Shown here one piece after another: positions 4,900 through 63,946 of a DNA stretch of 64,000 nucleotides. Origin of the DNA: an uncultured Desulfobacteraceae bacterium (lineage in GTDB: Bacteria > Desulfobacterota > DSM-4660 > Desulfatiglandales > HGW-15). The translations under genes and the position numbers were made by a program. The stretch is from contig CAYQNR010000001.1 in NCBI GenBank assembly GCA_964418945.1, forward strand, positions 13,414 to 77,413, written 5' to 3'. Numbering within the stretch: the stretch's first letter is position 1; each line of letters begins with the position of its first letter. The notes beneath the pieces were generated by a model that worked only from the letters and a program-made list of their open reading frames with translations, searched no databases and had not been told where the DNA came from.

Positions 4900-5219
4900 G
4901 GTTTATCCGGTCACGGCGGTTCTTTTCAAGACGACATCTATAGTATCCCGTGGACGTGGTCTTATTTTCAAGGGTTTGGCAAACCTTTTCCTGGTGGCAA
5001 AGGCATATTCTGCCAGGGGTTCTGGTGGAGCAAACCCTTCAAACAAGCCCACTGCAGGCCTGGGGTGGAATTCTTTTTGAGATGTCGTTTTTCCAAGAAC
5101 CACCGTGACTTCAGGTCTTAATACTTTTCGAAATGATATCTAAATATTTTGGGCCATTAAGGTACTTATAATAAGCCTTAATCTTTTACTTCTTTGCGTA
5201 CTCATTAACCGGATGAAAC
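4900..5219 (+). mobile_element. MITE-like composite element, copy A (variant cargo module)
   Basis: The right arm and TIR (GCGTACTCATTAACCGGATGAAAC) match the other copies. The left end GGTTTATCCGGT is interrupted by a ~200-bp module with imperfect 29-nt inverted arms at 4910-4938 and 5081-5109. Confidence 0.7.
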
Positions 5220-10434: not shown

Positions 10435-10779
10435 TTTGATCCGGTTAATAAGTACGTAAACAAATAAACGATTAAACCTTATCCGCCTTCGCAGAAGACC
10501 ACGGGTTTACCCGTGGGGCTCCATTATAAGTACCTTAATGGCCCATGGGGCTCTCTTTTAAGCACCGAAAACATTAACAGCATGCGAATTACGTAAGGTG
10601 CCACCCAGGCGGGCGGAATACTTATGAGATATTAGAAAATTCTCGAGTCCGGCCAGATCCGGAAAAGGCTACCCGCCCGCCTCGTCTGGTTTTGTGCGCG
10701 GTCAGTGCCCATAAACGAGTTCGCCGCTTAAAGAGAGCCCCATGGGCCATATAGCGCAAAATATCTTAGATATCATTAT
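10435..10779 (-). mobile_element. MITE-like composite element, copy B (inverted; one TIR missing)
   Basis: One TIR is TTTGATCCGGTTAATAAGTACG. It carries the hairpin segment CCACGGGTTTACCCGTGG and the inner module at 10540-10748 bounded by GGCCCATGGGG/CCCCATGGGCC. Homology on the far arm stops at about 10779 with no TIR. Confidence 0.75.
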
Positions 10780-19104: not shown

Positions 19105-19435
19105 AGTTAATCCGGTTAATGAGTACGCTAGTTAATGATATCTAAATACTTTGCTCTATATGGCCCATGGGGTTCTCTTTTAAAAGGCGAACTCGCTTAT
19201 GTGCAATGACCCTGCACAAAACAAGACGAGGCGGGCGGGTAGCCTTTTCCAGACTTGGCCGGACTCGAGAATTTTGTGTTATCTCATAAGTATTCCGCCC
19301 GCCTGGGTGGCACCTTACGTAGTTAGCATGCTGTTAATATCTTCGCCGCTTAAAAGAGAACCCCATGGGCCATTAAGGTACCTGTAATAAGGTTTGATCT
19401 TTTTCTTCTTTACGTACTCATTAACCGGATGAACC
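19105..19435 (+). mobile_element. MITE-like composite element, copy C
   Basis: TIRs AGTTAATCCGGTTAATGAGTACG ... CGTACTCATTAACCGGATGAACC. Inner module at 19162-19371. No hairpin segment in the right arm. Confidence 0.8.
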
Positions 19436-21558: not shown

Positions 21559-22118
21559 GCTTCATCCGGTTAATGAGTGCCCTAGTTAATGATATCTACA
21601 TGTTCTGCGCTATATGGCCCATGGGGTTCTCTTTTAAGCGGCGAACTCGTTTATGTGCAATGACCCTGCACAAAACAAGACGAGGCGGGTGGGTAGCCTT
21701 TTCTAGACTTGGCCCCACTCGAGGATGTTCTATTATCTCACAAGTATTCCGCCCGCCTGGGTGTCACCTTACGTAATTAGCATGCTGTTAATATTTTCGC
21801 CGTGTAAGAGAGAGCTTCATGGGCCATTAAGGTACTTATAATGGAGCCCCACGGGTAAACCCGTGGTCCCATTAAAATACCCGTCTTTCCATCCTCCGTA
21901 GCCCGTCCTCCGCAGTGGCCTGCTACGGAGGATGGACAGGCTACTGCGGAGGACGGGCGCCTCCGGCTACGACGCGGTTATCCGCCTGAACTGGGGGCGA
22001 CATCGCGCCGTAGCAAGCCATCATTTGCGCATTCAACCACGGGCAAGCACGTTGTCTTCTGCGAAGGCGGATAAGGTTTAATCCTTTACTTCTTTACCTA
22101 CTCATTAACCGGATGAAA
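21559..22118 (+). mobile_element. MITE-like composite element, copy D (fullest form, 560 bp)
   Basis: Contains TIRs, the inner module at 21616-21825, hairpin CCACGGGTAAACCCGTGG at 21849-21866, a 170-bp third module at 21867-22036, and a second hairpin CCACGGGCAAGCACGTTG at 22037-22054. Confidence 0.85.
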
Positions 22119-29334: not shown

Positions 29335-30422
29335 GGGACGCTCTTTAATAATTTAAAAACTTATCTTTCAAGAGAATAATTACCCTCTTTTGCGATTGAT
29401 TCTCCCCGTTCAACGGAAAATCCGACACCAGCTAAACTCATCTCTAATTTTTTGGCCAGGGATGTATGAGACAGGCCCAATTCCCTGGAAGCCCAAAAAC
29501 ATAAAAGACTCCTCGCCTTTACTTTTCTGTCCTGTCGCCCCTTTGAAAAAACTTCATCCGGTTTCATCCCTAGTACTTCCGAAACCCTCTTGGCTATACC
29601 ATCCAGATCATATCCTTTCCGCCTAAGTCTATGCCTTCGCTCATAGTGTTCCTCAGATTGTGAAATGACCGAATCAACAAAATCAGAATCCCCCAGGATT
29701 CTCTCATCACTCATAATATGAATACCACCCTTCAAAATTTCTCGGGCTTCAGTCCAACCACCAAGACTGCGGATTAATCCACCACCGGTCAATTGTTTCT
29801 TTCGGCCTTGGGTAAAACCTTCTTTAACAAAGGATTCATATTCTTCCCTGGCTTTACTCTTGCTTTTACTAAAATAGCCGAGAACGTAATCAGTATCCTG
29901 CCATTTACTTTCCGTTTTACCCATTAAAGTGCTATGCCCGCAATATTTATAGCTCTTCAATTCATCAAGCGTTTGAACAATTCCTGATCGAATAGGATTC
30001 AGATGAATATATCGGACCAATTCTTTAAGATACCCATCTTCCTGACAGATTATAGATTTGTACCTGTTCTGAAATAATTGACCACTACGTTTATGTCGGC
30101 GGTTAAATCTGATAACATAACCAGTAAGCAAACGTCTCATGAGTCTGGATAACGGCACCGTTCCGGTACGAAAAAGAAAATGTGCGTGATTAGACATGAA
30201 CGCCCACGCATAACAGGTTGTCTGCGTTGTATTACATAGGTTCTCAAGTCGTTCGATAAGATCCTCACGATCTTTATCGTTTCGGAATATCTTCCTGCGT
30301 TCTATCCCCCGAATCATGACATGGTGTAGAACACCTGGAGCATCAAGTCGTGCTGTTCTAGGCATATTTCTTTTTTAATATCGCCATCCTACAATGTCAA
30401 TTAAATTATTAAAGAGCGTCCC
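29335..30422 (-). mobile_element. Y1/HUH transposase gene bracketed by perfect 22-bp inverted repeats
   Basis: GGGACGCTCTTTAATAATTTAA at 29335-29356 is the exact reverse complement of TTAAATTATTAAAGAGCGTCCC at 30401-30422. The pair encloses the single ORF 29361-30365. Confidence 0.75.
29361..30365 (-). CDS. IS200/RAYT-like Y1 (HUH) transposase with C-terminal DnaA-C-like HTH domain
   Basis: N-terminus MPRTARLDAPGVLHHVMIRG, HUH motif SNHAHFLF and catalytic-Tyr region VRYIHLNPIRSGIV. The C-terminal SLLCFWASRELGLSHTSLAKKLEMSLAGVGFSVERGE is HTH-like. Confidence 0.8.
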   Translation of the reverse strand: MPRTARLDAPGVLHHVMIRGIERRKIFRNDKDREDLIERLENLCNTTQTTCYAWAFMSNHAHFLFRTGTVPLSRLMRRLLTGYVIRFNRRHKRSGQLFQNRYKSIICQEDGYLKELVRYIHLNPIRSGIVQTLDELKSYKYCGHSTLMGKTESKWQDTDYVLGYFSKSKSKAREEYESFVKEGFTQGRKKQLTGGGLIRSLGGWTEAREILKGGIHIMSDERILGDSDFVDSVISQSEEHYERRHRLRRKGYDLDGIAKRVSEVLGMKPDEVFSKGRQDRKVKARSLLCFWASRELGLSHTSLAKKLEMSLAGVGFSVERGESIAKEGNYSLER

Positions 30423-32751: not shown

Positions 32752-33114
32752 GGTTCATCCGGTTAATGAGTAGGTAAAGAAGTAAAGGATTAAACCTTAT
32801 CCGCCTTCGCAGAAGACAACGTGCTTGCCCGTGGTTGAATGCGCAAATGATGGCTTGCTACGGCGCGATGTCGCCCCCAGTTCAGGCGGATAACCGCGTC
32901 GTAGCCGGAGGCGCCCGTCCTCCGCAGTAGCCTGTCCATCCTCCGTAGCAGGCCACTGCGGAGGACGGGCTACGGAGGATGGAAAGACGGGTATTTTAAT
33001 GGGACCACGGGTTTACCCGTGAGGCTCCATTATAAGTACCTTAATGGCCCATGGGCCATATAGCGCAAAATACTTAGATATCATTAACTAGCGTACTCAT
33101 TAACCGGATGAAAC
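32752..33114 (-). mobile_element. MITE-like composite element, copy E (inverted; central site empty)
   Basis: By eye, one half is identical to the reverse complement of copy D, including the 170-bp third module at 32835-33004. The central palindrome GGCCCATGGGCC (33046-33057) is uninterrupted. Confidence 0.85.
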
Positions 33115-43343: not shown

Positions 43344-43716
43344 GGTTCATCCGCTTAATCAGTACGGTAGCTAATTATATCTAGATACTTTGCGTTACAT
43401 GGGCCATGGGGTTCTCTTTTAAGCGGCGAACTCGTTTATGTGCTATGACCCTGCACAAAACAAGACGAGGCGGGCGGGTAGCCTTTTCCAGACTTGGCCG
43501 GACTCGAGAATTTTGTGTTATCTCATAAGTATTCCGCCCGCCTGGGTGGCACCTTACGTAGTTAGCATGCTGTTAATGTTTTCGTCCCTTAAAAGAGAGC
43601 CCCATGGGCCATTAAGCTACTTATAATGGAGCCCCACGGGCAAGCACGTGGTCTTCTGCGAAGGAGGATAAGGTTTAATCTTTTACTTCTTTACGTACTC
43701 CTTAACCGGATGAAAC
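43344..43716 (+). mobile_element. MITE-like composite element, copy F
   Basis: Degenerate TIRs GGTTCATCCGCTTAATCAGTACG ... CGTACTCCTTAACCGGATGAAAC. Inner module at 43401-43610. The right arm carries hairpin CCACGGGCAAGCACGTGG. Confidence 0.8.
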
Positions 43717-47279: not shown

Positions 47280-47601
47280 GGTTCATCCGGTTAATGAGTA
47301 CGGAAAGGACTTTATATAAATACTTGGTTTGGCCCATGGGGTTCTCTTTGCGACAGGCGAACTTGTTTATGTGCAAGGCGCGGGCAATAAGCCGGACTAG
47401 GCGGGCGGCGGGCTATTGGAATAATATACCAGGACCGGAAGTCCGGCTATCATCTCAGAAGTTACCCGCCCGCCTGGCAGGCACCTTATGCTATTATCTT
47501 GCTTCTAACCTTTTCGCCGCTGCAAAGAGAGCCCCATGGGCCGAATATCACCAATCTTGCTATAGTATTATCATTAAGTGTGCTCATTCGCCGGATGATC
47601 C
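47280..47601 (+). mobile_element. MITE-like composite element, copy G (subfamily 2, filled)
   Basis: The arms are nearly identical to copy H. A variant inner module at 47331-47542 is inserted in GGCCCATGGGCC. The element fills most of the glyS-metV divergent intergenic region. Confidence 0.85.
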
Positions 47602-53060: not shown

Positions 53061-53182
53061 GGTTCATCAGGTTAATGAGTACGGAAAGGATTTTATATAA
53101 ATACTTGGTTCGGCCCATGGGCCGAACATCACCAATCTTGCTATAGTTTTATCATTAAGCGCACTCATTTGCCGGATGATCC
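53061..53182 (+). mobile_element. MITE-like element, copy H (minimal 122-bp form, empty central site)
   Basis: GGTTCATCAGGTTAATGAGTACGG ... GCGCACTCATTTGCCGGATGATCC around the 20-bp palindrome GTTCGGCCCATGGGCCGAAC. It lies between hypF and hypC. Confidence 0.85.
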
Positions 53183-60731: not shown

Positions 60732-60992
60732 CCATCACCCGGGGGCAGGTACCCGTGGGGAAACGACCCTTGGGGGAGTAAAGAGAAAAAATAGGGGCGA
60801 TGTTGTTCGTCGCAATGATGTATTGTTTACGGATCTGCAACTGAGCACTGACTTGTTAGAATCATGGATAATAGAGGGGGCATGCCTGGCGTCCTACCCG
60901 CCCCCGTATTGAGCTCATGGGGATACCGCTGCAAAAAGCCTTCATTTGTGGAGAGATGAACAGTCGAAAATATGGGGGTCGCGTCTGTACTC

Positions 60993-61067
60993 CTGACAAA
61001 TTCCGTATTAATCATCTATCTACAAGTAGTACTAAATTAAGATACGTGAAGAATGGAGACCTGACCC
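60993..61067 (+). promoter_or_regulatory. Conserved promoter/operator-like block, copy 1
   Basis: About 75 nt, with roughly 80% identity to 63872-63946. It reads CTGACA-N18-TATCTA and then the shared block CAAGTAGTACTAAAT...CGTGAAGAATG. Confidence 0.45.
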
Positions 61068-63468: not shown

Positions 63469-63871
63469 GATTTTAACCCCCTATCCAATGTTTTACAATT
63501 GAGAGGTCTCAGGTGCGCTCTCACGCAAAACAGCCTCCTCCAAAATCACGAGCGGGCCTTTATCTGAGCCTAGCCTGTTTTCAACCGCAGAGCCCGCTCA
63601 GGAAAAACTGTGACAATAACTTAAACCTGGCCTAACAAGTTAACGGCCCATAGCTAACATTTGTTGGGTGAGGTAAGGTGAGGAGATGAGAGCTCCCTTT
63701 TTTGGGGCCTAAGTATAGGTGATTTGGTCCTGCGTGTCAATGATAAAGTCGACGCATGATGTGGTAATCCTCCATTTTGCCTGGAAATCAGATTGATGAG
63801 TGGAGGGCATTCAGAGGTGGGGAAGGTACATCTGGGGCCATATCTTTGTGAAAAGGATGACAGTTTCACTC

Positions 63872-63946
63872 TTGACAGATTTCAGATTAATGATTTATCT
63901 ACAAGTAGTACTAAATAAAAATGCGTGAAGAATGAAGATCTGAGCC
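63872..63946 (+). promoter_or_regulatory. Conserved promoter/operator-like block, copy 2
   Basis: TTGACA-N18-TATCTA plus the same downstream block as 60993-61067. It points toward sequence beyond the window end. Confidence 0.45.

Follow-up and report, generated by a model that had tools for sequence, protein, structure and literature searches.

Interleaved inverted repeats in an uncultured Desulfobacteraceae bacterium as probable cargo of a gene-less element of the IS200/IS605 kind

Why should two perfect 14-nt inverted repeats lie interleaved, in the order of a pseudoknot, within a short segment that occurs twice in the same stretch of DNA? The question is raised by positions 21867-22054 of the window (here, the whole stretch of 64,000 nucleotides that was analysed, from an uncultured Desulfobacteraceae bacterium), which an initial annotation had called a third module. 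The answer that appears most probable, at roughly 0.65, is that this "third module" forms the inner part of a mobile element of the IS200/IS605 kind, 230 bp long and gene-less, and that the array of repeats within it is most likely selfish palindromic cargo.

The array occupies 21889-21956 on the plus strand. It is made from one 14-nt unit used four times, twice in direct and then twice in inverted orientation. Its parts are S1 (CCATCCTCCGTAGC, 21889-21902), S2 (CCGTCCTCCGCAGT, 21903-21916, directly followed by GGCCT), S1' (GCTACGGAGGATGG, 21922-21935, directly followed by ACAGGCT), and S2' (ACTGCGGAGGACGG, 21943-21956). The coordinates and the reverse complements bear out what had been described: S1' is the reverse complement of S1 and S2' that of S2, each pair being perfect over 14 nt, in the order 1-2-1'-2'. 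S1 differs from S2 at positions 3, 11, and 14. With up to two mismatches allowed, the unit pattern is matched 11 times in the window against 1.79 expected, a count reached by none of 100 shuffles. The same core is found in many other contexts.

The array lies within copy D of a MITE bounded by terminal inverted repeats (TIRs), which extends over 21561..22117 on the plus strand (TIRs CATCCGGTTAATGAGTGC at 21563-21580, with the inverted partner at 22098-22115). The TIR pattern is matched 14 times in the window, where 0.05 matches are expected. When MITE copies A-F are aligned, they share a backbone; copies A and C are empty (..TA/ATAAGG..), and copies B, F, D, and E are filled with the element. 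Another comparison comes from the locus L062. Once the element is removed from it, the flanks join without a gap and align to window repeats at 60989-61067 and 63868-63946 (..AGTACTAA/ATAAAG..). Both of these independent empty/filled pairs show precise insertion with no duplication of the target site.

These comparisons place the element at 21841..22070 on the minus strand, as the long form of a non-autonomous, PATE-like element of the IS200/IS605 type. Its top strand, which is the minus strand of the window, reads 5'-TTAT/CCGCCTTCGC...GGCTCCAT/-3'. The TTAT (22071..22074, ATAA on the plus strand) is target DNA outside the element, and is both the target and the left cleavage tetranucleotide; both empty sites have it, and it is conserved beside every copy. 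Neither of the termini, ATGGAGCC and GAAGGCGG, is an inverted repeat of the other; the element has a subterminal hairpin at either end, without terminal inverted repeats. At the right end (RE), the hairpin is CCACGGGTAAACCCGTGG (21849..21866, minus strand), and the same hairpin stands in MITE copy B at 10499-10516. At the left end (LE), it is CCACGGGCAAGCACGTTG (22037..22054, minus strand), a hairpin of the type in copy F, which reads CCACGGGCAAGCACGTGG there (43634-43651). The right guide is GGGA, the reverse complement of 21867-21870, and the right cleavage site is CCAT, the reverse complement of 21841-21844. The left guide, AAGA (22055-22058, minus strand), lies 5' of the LE hairpin on the top strand.

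The initial annotation had noticed that the segment is bracketed by two unlike REP-like hairpins, one as in copy B and one as in copy F, and these are indeed the hairpins at 21849-21866 and 22037-22054. It suggested either insertion beside a hairpin by an element with a hairpin of its own, or recombination between two copies that each bear one. They are not a target hairpin beside an incoming one; they are, rather, the two subterminal end hairpins of a single miniature element of the IS200/IS605 type. The interval 21867-22054 survives as an identical stretch, and not as the unit of insertion, which is 21841-22070. The alternative that it named, a fragment of a known IS end, was near the truth, since the segment lies inside an element whose IS type is known.

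The element is typed as a non-autonomous member of IS200/IS605 because it inserts precisely and without duplication, because its neighbour is RTAA (TTAY on the top strand), and because its guide and cleavage tetranucleotides co-vary in the pattern of IS608. Type I copies have at least nine different left-flank contexts, with a right flank that is always RTAA; this motif, read on the plus strand of the window (TTAY on the top strand), stands beside 15 of the 15 type I listings. Type II elements are flanked by TTAT, CTAT, TTAC, or TCAC. The right-end pair of IS608 is TCAA/GAAT. In IS608, the TTAC site is read through AAAG, positioned 5' of the foot of the LE hairpin (PMC5027513). When 17 of the elements are read in the IS608 register, guide and cleavage site at the left end pair by Watson-Crick rules in 49 of 51 cases, with two wobbles and no mismatch; at the right end, 42 of 51 are Watson-Crick. 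Three left-end combinations of cleavage site and guide co-vary: TTAT with AAGA or AATA, TTAC with AAGG, and TCAC with GATG. A Y1 HUH transposase encoded elsewhere would move such an element in trans, in the form of single-stranded DNA.

The window does have a Y1 gene (Y1_Tnp, 29361-30365), the only one in it, and it lies between two copies of the element. As a mobiliser (a RAYT) it is nevertheless rejected, since it has perfect 22-bp inverted repeats of its own, GGGACGCTCTTTAATAATTTAA, which are related neither to the units nor to the ends of the element, and since its Verrucomicrobial homologues are likewise TIR-flanked. In 10 metagenome contigs, the gene is single-copy and in the same context. 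A homologue at locus L094 is flanked by GGGGTCACATCTTAATTATT. At seven loci with four Verrucomicrobial homologues, the inverted repeats are again unrelated to the units, and AAGGTGTCAGTCAATGATAATGT is found in six of them. A TIR-associated Y1 type, as seen around these Verrucomicrobial genes, has been described (PMC3733652). Every Y1 gene seen in the window and in the loci examined is of this TIR-flanked type, with unrelated ends. The other 29 ORFs of the window were scanned against Pfam without TnpA or TnpB appearing, and neither the window nor the loci examined yielded a cognate IS200-type transposase.

Shorter forms of the element also exist. A 42-bp form with one hairpin, of the LE type, sits in MITE copy F (43626..43667, minus strand), and another, with an RE-type hairpin, sits inverted in copy B (10483..10524, plus strand). 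Short forms are thus known with either type of hairpin, and a short form recurs at an independent site, L080. Between these and the long form lie long-copy intermediates of 135, 176, 195, and 209 bp. The one-hairpin forms in B and F are probably internal deletions between the two end hairpins; deletion, from long to short, is the more parsimonious direction, although the short form at L080 speaks against it.

A second 230-bp element lies inverted in MITE copy E (32801..33030, plus strand, with its array at 32915-32982), its top strand being the plus strand of the window. The module had been held to be identical there, as the reverse complement, and it is: 21867-22054 and the reverse complement of 32817-33004 agree at 100%. 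The identity of copies D and E runs well past the module, from 21818 to 22117, with one mismatch (C at 21849 against T at 33022), and is broken at 21817 and at 22118. The two would have become near-identical over these 300 bp when MITE copies recently recombined or underwent gene conversion. Near-identical inverted copies of this length cause breaks in metagenome assemblies, and could serve to invert the intervening 10.6 kb. As for presence/absence polymorphism at locus E, the element was present in all related metagenome contigs examined.

How, then, does the array fold? In both RNA and DNA folds, the dominant predicted hairpin pairs 21901-21922 with 21937-21958 on the plus strand, giving a stem of 22 bp that includes one G-T pair. 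All forward units end with GTAG, which consequently stands at the 5' foot of this hairpin. Its loop of 14 nt (21923-21936) is complementary to 21888-21901, which ends where the stem starts; this complementarity corresponds to S1/S1', displaced by one nucleotide. The extended S2:S2' hairpin is the minimum free energy (MFE) structure, at -53.6 kcal/mol; the fold with S1:S1' forced has -47.2 kcal/mol, and the nested one -39.9 kcal/mol. The whole 170-nt module has an MFE of -81.4 kcal/mol (z = -5.4). In a set of 38 distinct arrays, the share of paired cells is 95.4% for the interleaved register and 90.2% for the nested. The earlier view that the interleaved complementarity is better than the nested therefore holds, by energy (with S1:S1' forced) and by paired cells alike. 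The long nested hairpin (S2:S1' with S1:S2') can be rejected, having the worst energy and pairing worse than all 500 of its shuffles. An intrinsic terminator is rejected as well; no T-run follows the hairpin, and a terminator scan finds none there.

In these folding models, a single strand prefers the 22-bp S2:S2' hairpin, with S1' as its loop and S1 as its 5' neighbour, and S1:S1' would be a competing hairpin. The initial annotation had offered a choice between mutually exclusive hairpins and an H-type pseudoknot. Alternative hairpins are most likely. On geometrical grounds, a complete H-type pseudoknot with both 14-bp stems appears sterically implausible, because S2 follows S1 with 0 nt in between, and only 7 nt separate S1' from S2'; beside the 22-bp hairpin, only a partial contact from loop to flank could be expected to coexist. 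The further hairpin reported at about 21967-22014 is present, with its limits corrected: GCTACGACGCG at 21966-21976 pairs with CGCGCCGTAGC at 22004-22014 (plus strand), with one A-C mismatch. It is kept in other long copies; that at L085 is changed on both sides, with L074 as a one-sided intermediate. Both strands of the element interior are strongly structured.

Arrays of the 14-nt unit make up a palindromic family that extends across phylum boundaries. A degenerate pattern matches 44 genome stretches, most of which are true arrays, mainly in MAGs of Desulfobacteraceae and Verrucomicrobiae, with one from Dehalococcoidales; about 9 of the 44 are unrelated matches (Streptomyces, Lachnospiraceae, and others). 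Metagenomes add 63 stretches with 43 distinct cores. Arrays are extragenic and clustered, and are multi-copy in several MAGs. They have 2-10 forward units with a period of 14 nt and 1-4 reverse units with a period of 19 nt. The four-unit order seen here is found again in many flanks that are unrelated, which counts against the explanation preferred here; type II elements contain the array in either orientation, and it is also found outside such elements. At L024, comparison with intact homologues shows a single 32-nt hairpin cleanly inserted in a Y1 gene.

The order of units is variable. At L022 and L089 it is nested, at L069 the loop is flipped, the Verrucomicrobial arrays are uniform, and many arrays are deletion derivatives. 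The interleaved order is thus not constant among diverged copies. Nor does covariation of the interleaved pairs S1/S1' and S2/S2' rise above column shuffles: the 95.4% of the interleaved pairing is the mean of those shuffles, and two-sided change occurs in three pairs, in one cell each.

Is the family already known? Rfam gave no match at the gathering score for the window and 16 loci, and a known RNA family is rejected, since at E values up to 10 only chance microRNA hairpins appear, far below threshold. An origin in phages is rejected, viral contigs being without arrays and a looser pattern matching only generic hairpins, as is an origin in plasmids, where nothing matched. Searching the literature by sequence string returned only primer coincidences, and the RepRanger supplements were negative; one family of Opitutus terrae (PMC3733652) could still be identical. 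The unit array, shared across phyla and absent from Rfam and from the literature searched, is apparently undescribed.

One feature of the family is not what pure junk predicts. Among 19 distinct complete arrays of the window's type, variation amounts to 0.8% of cells in S1', 3.0% in S2', 14.7% in the loop, and 9.8% in the spacer; S1 and S2 were fixed by the exact search pattern (an ascertainment). Because it varies at just 0.8%, S1' must be constrained or homogenised, even though it is "only a loop" in the best fold. This would suit an array that is a functional bistable switch, in RNA or single-stranded DNA, merely spread by the miniature transposon. Here, S1:S1' would form first, to be replaced by S2:S2' or to coexist with it in part, as a short pseudoknot from loop to 5' flank. 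The two folds lie about 6 kcal/mol apart, S1' is the most conserved unconstrained segment (against 10-15% in loop and spacer), and the interleaved register pairs better than the nested, all of which fit such a switch. Through G-U pairs, the folds of Verrucomicrobial arrays are about 8 kcal/mol better on their forward-to-reverse strand, and at low-GC loci the array tends weakly to be co-oriented with its neighbours (28 against 12 on the left and 19 against 9 on the right, from crude ORF calls and partly redundant loci, the arrays being oriented by unit spacing since both arms match the forward pattern). However, covariation does not rise above shuffles, arrays of the window's type fold without strand asymmetry, and most changes that fall in the uppermost 5 bp of S2:S2' disrupt its stem. 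The units differ in number and order, partial deletion of the array is frequent, and no consistent gene neighbourhood was seen among the array loci. There is no intrinsic terminator, the downstream gene has its promoter-like site beyond the MITE, and the full double 14-bp pseudoknot is, again, hard to reconcile with steric limits. Such a switch is therefore unlikely. A tentative possibility, itself on the doubtful side, is that the array is an independently mobile, functionally constrained hairpin module of Verrucomicrobiota and Desulfobacterota (and once of a Dehalococcoidales MAG), which IS200/IS605-type miniature elements carry as cargo; its Desulfobacterota form would be a selected bistable fold, S1:S1' against S2:S2', as a structure recognised by an enzyme in single-strand DNA or as a new RNA element.

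Mobility might also be sought in the units themselves, were they classical REPs, that is, GTAG-tagged palindromes in BIME-like clusters moved by a dedicated RAYT. The GTAG that ends every forward unit, and hence marks the 5' foot of the 22-bp hairpin, points that way, as do arrays that are extragenic, multi-copy, and clustered, and the single hairpin inserted without duplication at L024. REP families, those of Verrucomicrobia (Opitutus terrae) among them, have been described with G-T pairing and with GTAG tags (PMC3733652). This origin is nevertheless improbable: REPs would stand on both sides of their RAYT gene (a REPtron), but among the Y1 genes examined, in the window, at L094, and in Verrucomicrobia, none is flanked by units, all having other inverted repeats; the L024 hairpin disrupts its Y1 gene rather than flanking it; and the units run n direct and then m inverted, where those of BIMEs alternate. 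Less credible still is the idea that the element interior (second hairpin plus array, on the top strand towards the right end) is an omega-RNA scaffold, used in trans by TnpB or IscB, as has been reported for many IS200/IS605 derivatives that lack genes. Known omega-RNA scaffolds have short pseudoknots, unlike the 14-bp interleaved stems, which counts against it. PATE elements do "often encode omega-RNAs" (PMC10055086), and the interior is both strongly structured, on either strand, and placed directly upstream of the right-end hairpin. Yet Rfam, including its curated IS605/HEARO-type families, gives no match, the 30 window ORFs scanned with Pfam include no TnpB or IscB, and the array is not confined to such elements, nor to one orientation in those of type II.

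What results is a nest of three levels: a unit array in a gene-less element of the IS200/IS605 type in a TIR-bounded MITE. On the preferred reading, as selfish cargo, slippage, loop inversion, and hairpin-templated copying would maintain the array and change its shape, and its role in transcripts would be at most that of a strong hairpin. The analysis gives the exact boundaries of that element and its target motif (TTAY or TCAC), and the co-varying pairs of guide and cleavage site form a signature, drawn from sequence alone, of single-strand "peel-and-paste" transposition among uncultured Desulfobacterota. Should the conservation of S1' reflect function, the array is a candidate for a new structured element. 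Should it not, the array illustrates cleanly that pseudoknot-like orders can arise, without a pseudoknot, from slippage, loop inversion, and hairpin-templated copying.

Parallels can be drawn with several known systems. H-type RNA pseudoknots have the same segment order, 1-2-1'-2', but those that are known combine short stems with loops long enough to cross the grooves, whereas the array has 14-bp stems and gaps of 0 and 7 nt. BOX elements of Streptococcus pneumoniae (boxA-boxB(n)-boxC) are, like the array, modular and intergenic, with a variable number of internal units, long predicted hairpins, and no transposase of their own; their sequences are unrelated, and BOX modules are not direct-then-inverted copies of one unit. 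To our knowledge, BOX elements are not found inside IS200/IS605-type ends, unlike the array. The array resembles REPs, BIMEs, and REPINs as a set of short, GC-rich extragenic palindromes, clustered and variable in number, with GTAG beside the stem. A REP is a palindrome of 20-40 bp, extragenic and in many copies, that bears an unpaired GTAG or CGTC tag at one end; in the minimal hairpin of the array, GTAG lies within the stem. The array also resembles REPs in inserting without duplication and, in some lineages, in having G-T pairs on one strand (PMC3733652). It differs from them in its 14-nt units, in the direct block followed by an inverted block (with periods of 14 against 19-21 nt), and in a unit that is near-identical across phyla, REPs being usually lineage-specific.

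Closest to the element as a whole is the IS200/IS605 family with its PATEs (IS608, ISDra2), which likewise have one imperfect subterminal hairpin at each end and no TIRs, duplicate no target, and insert with the left end always 3' of a specific tetra- or pentanucleotide. The element departs from these references in having no transposase gene, in its targets TTAT, TTAC, or TCAC, in an interior that is an array of palindromic units with another hairpin rather than a gene remnant, and in being itself nested in a TIR-bounded MITE. With IS608 it shares, in the same register and with co-variation, the 4 nt 5' of each hairpin foot that are complementary to the cleavage site (PMC5027513).

The interleaved repeats at 21889-21956 consist of four 14-nt units that can be read directly from the window: S1 (CCATCCTCCGTAGC, 21889-21902), S2 (CCGTCCTCCGCAGT, 21903-21916, then GGCCT), S1' (GCTACGGAGGATGG, 21922-21935, then ACAGGCT), and S2' (ACTGCGGAGGACGG, 21943-21956). 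S1/S1' and S2/S2' are exact reverse complements in the order 1-2-1'-2', just as the initial annotation claimed, and three positions distinguish S1 from S2. The 14-nt pattern, allowing at most two mismatches, has 11 matches in the window where 1.8 are expected, a number reached by none of 100 shuffles. The module was also said to be identical in two copies, and it is; 21867-22054 is the reverse complement of 32817-33004, with identity extending over 21818-22117 save for a single mismatch at 21849/33022.

The surroundings are chromosomal bacterial DNA, with genes for lipid A, hydrogenase maturation, acyl-CoA dehydrogenase, and an ECF sigma factor. The genomes in which its repeats recur make Desulfobacteraceae the probable source. 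A MITE with the inverted repeat CATCCGGTTAATGAGTAC at its ends recurs in the intergenic regions of the window, in at least eight copies (5198-5215, 10438-10455, 19109-19431, 21563-22115, 32756-33110, 43348-43712, 47284-47597, and 53065-53178). Two subfamilies have unlike interiors; 47282-47599 and 53063-53180 have in common only the ends and a CCCATGGG site. When the copies called A to F are aligned (B without one end, A present as a right-hand part only), they resolve into one backbone plus optional inserts. The first insert, of ~197 bp, lies within the MITE palindrome GGCCCATGGGCC in B, C, D, and F, and not in E. The second, between ..TATA and ATAAGG.., is missing from A and C, and measures 42 bp in B and F but 230 bp in D and E. 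The interleaved repeats lie in the interior of this 230-bp insert (21841-22070 in D, inverted at 32801-33030 in E), and the arrangement is thus a three-level nest.

The ~197-bp insert (21621-21817, with further copies in B, C, F, and at about 47447-47542) has the 12-bp palindrome as its site, which copy E displays empty. It has terminal inverted repeats of its own (GGGGTTCTCTTTTAAGCGGCGAA / TTCGCCGCTTAAAAGAGAACCCC) and long internal complementary G/C runs (GGCGGGCGGG / CCCGCCCGCC), and appears to be either a structured RNA or one more miniature element in the nest.

The 230-bp element, 5'-ATGGAGCCCC...GAAGGCGG-3', is also found in other contigs, outside the MITE. Its left flank occurs in at least nine different contexts, the flanking bases are never seen duplicated, and RTAA lies directly to its right in every context. 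Two independent empty sites make the boundaries exact to the base, and imply that RTAA is target DNA. One is supplied by MITE copies A and C. The other is a second repeat family, 79 bp long and 84% identical between its copies at 60989-61067 and 63868-63946, upstream of two window genes. A homologue lies at 5889-6237 of L062, a locus from outside the window; once the element is removed, the L062 flanks align to this family without a gap (..AGTACTAA/ATAAAG..).

At other loci, long copies are shortened to 135, 176, 195, and 209 bp by internal deletions that run from one short repeat to another. The 42-bp forms retain the leader of the left end (LE), one hairpin, and the tail of the right end (RE); the hairpin is of the RE type in copy B, and of the LE type in copy F and locus L080. 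Recombinational deletion between two similar hairpins, with differing crossover points, is the more parsimonious account of both 42-bp types, although not a proven one.

Over their right-hand 300 bp, copies D and E show 99.7% identity, against only 90% at their left ends; other MITE copies diverge by 9-12%. This mosaic points to recombination or gene conversion in the recent past rather than to one recent transposition of the whole MITE. D and E face in opposite directions, 10.6 kb apart, and their 99.7% identical 300-bp repeats (21818-22117 and 32754-33053) enclose a segment of slightly higher G+C (0.50-0.53, versus about 0.45). Independent metagenome assemblies stop at these repeats, four from Logan giving contigs of 10.3-10.7 kb. 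The segment could invert via recombination between them.

The array is not confined to this element. When one genome per species was scanned with a degenerate pattern, 44 stretches came up, about nine of them unrelated matches (Streptomyces, Lachnospiraceae, and others). The rest are true arrays, and come from several Desulfobacteraceae/Desulfobacterales MAGs, one Dehalococcoidales MAG, and three Verrucomicrobiae MAGs, in each of which copies are numerous. Scanning metagenomes for an exact 22-mer added 63 stretches, among which 43 cores are distinct. In general, an array consists of n forward units (CCGTCCTCCGTAGC, period 14) and, after a short loop, m reverse units (ACTGCGGAGGGTGG and a spacer, period 19-21), with n = 1-10 and m = 1-4. 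Within type II elements (one of two related miniature types), the array can point either way with respect to the ends, and it stands alone in Verrucomicrobia; it is therefore a module in its own right. Its smallest form is a single 32-nt forward-loop-reverse hairpin, CCCGTCCTCCGTAGCTCACTGCGGAGGGTGGA, in a Verrucomicrobiae MAG (MFD02416.bin.2.131, locus L024, 7285-7335). Here, it separates codons 5 and 6 of a Y1 transposase gene and shifts the frame, and intact homologues are uninterrupted at that point (ATGGCTCGCAAGCTG/CGC...). Thus, the minimal unit hairpin is itself a duplication-free insertion. No Rfam family matched the array, nor was it found in viral contigs and plasmids or, by sequence string, in the searchable literature. 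Among palindromic repeat clusters, it is apparently a variant not described before, and its spread across phyla is unusual. Seven Verrucomicrobial arrays (L013, L021, L026, L028, L030, L042, L077) have 7-8-nt short tandem repeats on both sides, in direct orientation, that vary by locus (GAACCTT, ACAGTCC, CATCCAA, GTGATGC, GGACTTC, and others).

What, then, does the interleaving mean? Among arrays beginning CCATCC, the order 1-2-1'-2' is the commonest and is seen with many unrelated flanks. Other orders exist: the arrangement in L022/L089 makes the nested pairing the perfect one, L085 is nested-compatible, and L069 has its loop unit flipped, with the nested partner after it. Verrucomicrobial units are uniform. 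In 38 distinct arrays of the two-plus-two kind, 95.4% of cells pair when read in the interleaved register, which is the column-shuffle mean. Covariation therefore contributes nothing, and the independent co-variation of S1/S1' and S2/S2' suggested as a check finds no support above the shuffle level. The nested register pairs 90.2%, lower than in all 500 shuffles.

Folding 21880-21965 as RNA gives -53.6 kcal/mol for an extended S2:S2' hairpin (the MFE), -47.2 with S1:S1' forced, and -39.9 for the nested fold. S2 and S2' are predicted to pair, as first proposed, in a stem that proves longer (22 bp, 21901-21922 with 21937-21958, one G-T pair) and leaves S1' as its loop; a further hairpin also exists, at the refined coordinates 21966-21976 with 22004-22014. 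Of the suggested mutually exclusive hairpins or pseudoknot, the alternative hairpins are reasonable. A complete H-type pseudoknot is unlikely, since it would require a 0-nt link across one 14-bp stem and a 7-nt link across another, too short by standard pseudoknot geometry; no more than a few pairs between loop and flank could form alongside the 22-bp hairpin.

The main rival reading is that the array is a functional bistable element, and it stays so because S1' is conserved. In 19 distinct complete arrays of the window's type, which are non-independent copies with S1 and S2 fixed by the search pattern, variable cells make up 0.8% of S1', 3.0% of S2', 14.7% of the loop, and 9.8% of the spacer. 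The low variation of S1' speaks against pure neutrality. In the top 5 bp of the 22-bp stem, a single change is compensated (A-T to G-C, via a G-T pair as in the window), alongside a few wobbles and about six disruptive changes, a pattern that looks like a decaying DNA palindrome. Verrucomicrobial arrays have a clear strand asymmetry through G-U pairs (~8 kcal/mol); arrays of the window's type have none. We would instead derive the perfect interleaved complementarity from palindrome events at the DNA level (unit slippage, loop inversion, hairpin- or template-switch copying), the array afterwards being inherited en bloc while elements spread. A Y1 transposase supplied in trans would excise and insert the element as a single strand, short forms would arise by deletion, and gene conversion may have acted on D and E. 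Any cellular effect would come from a very stable hairpin in read-through transcripts.

A Y1 gene does lie between the two copies (29361-30365, minus strand), with an IS200-like Y1 domain and a C-terminal DnaA-type HTH. It scores 67 bits on the NCBIfam REP-associated transposase model, below the cut-off of 80. A perfect 22-bp inverted repeat, GGGACGCTCTTTAATAATTTAA, stands on both sides (29335-29356 and 30401-30422). A TIR-associated Y1 class has been described by Di Nocera et al. (PMC3733652); the gene agrees with that class ("TIRYT") in being flanked by inverted repeats, and differs from a REP-flanked RAYT in having no flanking REPs. It thus looks like a TIRYT, and not an IS. In 10 metagenome contigs, the gene stands as a single copy in this same context, and more than 8000 homologues were found at 77-88% identity. 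Homologues in L094 and Verrucomicrobia are flanked by inverted repeats of their own, and neither these nor the window gene could be linked to the 14-nt units or the element ends. At L099/L100/L112 and L093, arrays are truncated by small inserted elements whose termini are inverted repeats of the GGGGACGC type (GGGGGACGCTGTTAGG ... CCTAACAGCGTCCCC), similar to the repeats around TIR-associated Y1 genes. TIR-only derivatives of such genes therefore seem to move and to insert into the array.

No cognate transposase of the 230-bp element was found, and its filing comes from structural traits and guide/cleavage complementarity. Read on the opposite strand, it is 5'-TTAT/CCGCCTTCGCAGAAGA-(hairpin)...(hairpin)-GGCTCCAT/. 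The two differing hairpins that bracket the module are present as annotated; called REP-like, they are real, and are the RE (21849-21866) and LE (22037-22054) subterminal hairpins of one element. The element shows the traits that define IS200/IS605 elements (PMC5027513): each end has one subterminal hairpin, terminal inverted repeats are lacking, nothing is duplicated, and the left end invariably lies 3' of a set tetranucleotide. In IS608, the guide AAAG, immediately 5' of the left hairpin foot, reads the target TTAC (PMC5027513). When the IS608 register (c1:g2, c2:g1, c4:g4) was applied to 17 elements of two related types, the LE guide/cleavage pairs were Watson-Crick in 49 of 51 cases and wobble in two, with no mismatch. 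Three target/guide sets co-vary at LE: TTAT/AAGA or AATA, TTAC/AAGG, and TCAC/GATG. At RE, 42 of 51 pair, some misses stemming from hairpins of differing length. In the window copy, the left cleavage site TTAT with guide AAGA and the right site CCAT with guide GGGA are Watson-Crick at 6/6 positions. A second IS200/IS605-like miniature type (ATGAAGCTCCCCGC...hairpin ... hairpin...GGCGAAGGCGA, at L031, L035, L068, L070, L086, L090, L098, and L111) lies beside ATAA or GTGA with the same 14-nt-unit array, and its target/guide tetranucleotides co-vary (TTAT/AATA versus TCAC/GATG). The window element, alike to IS608 in end hairpins, lack of duplication, fixed tetranucleotide, and guide/cleavage register, can thus be filed from its sequence as an IS200/IS605-type non-autonomous element (PATE-like), and joins the already known kind of IS200/IS605-type miniature elements.
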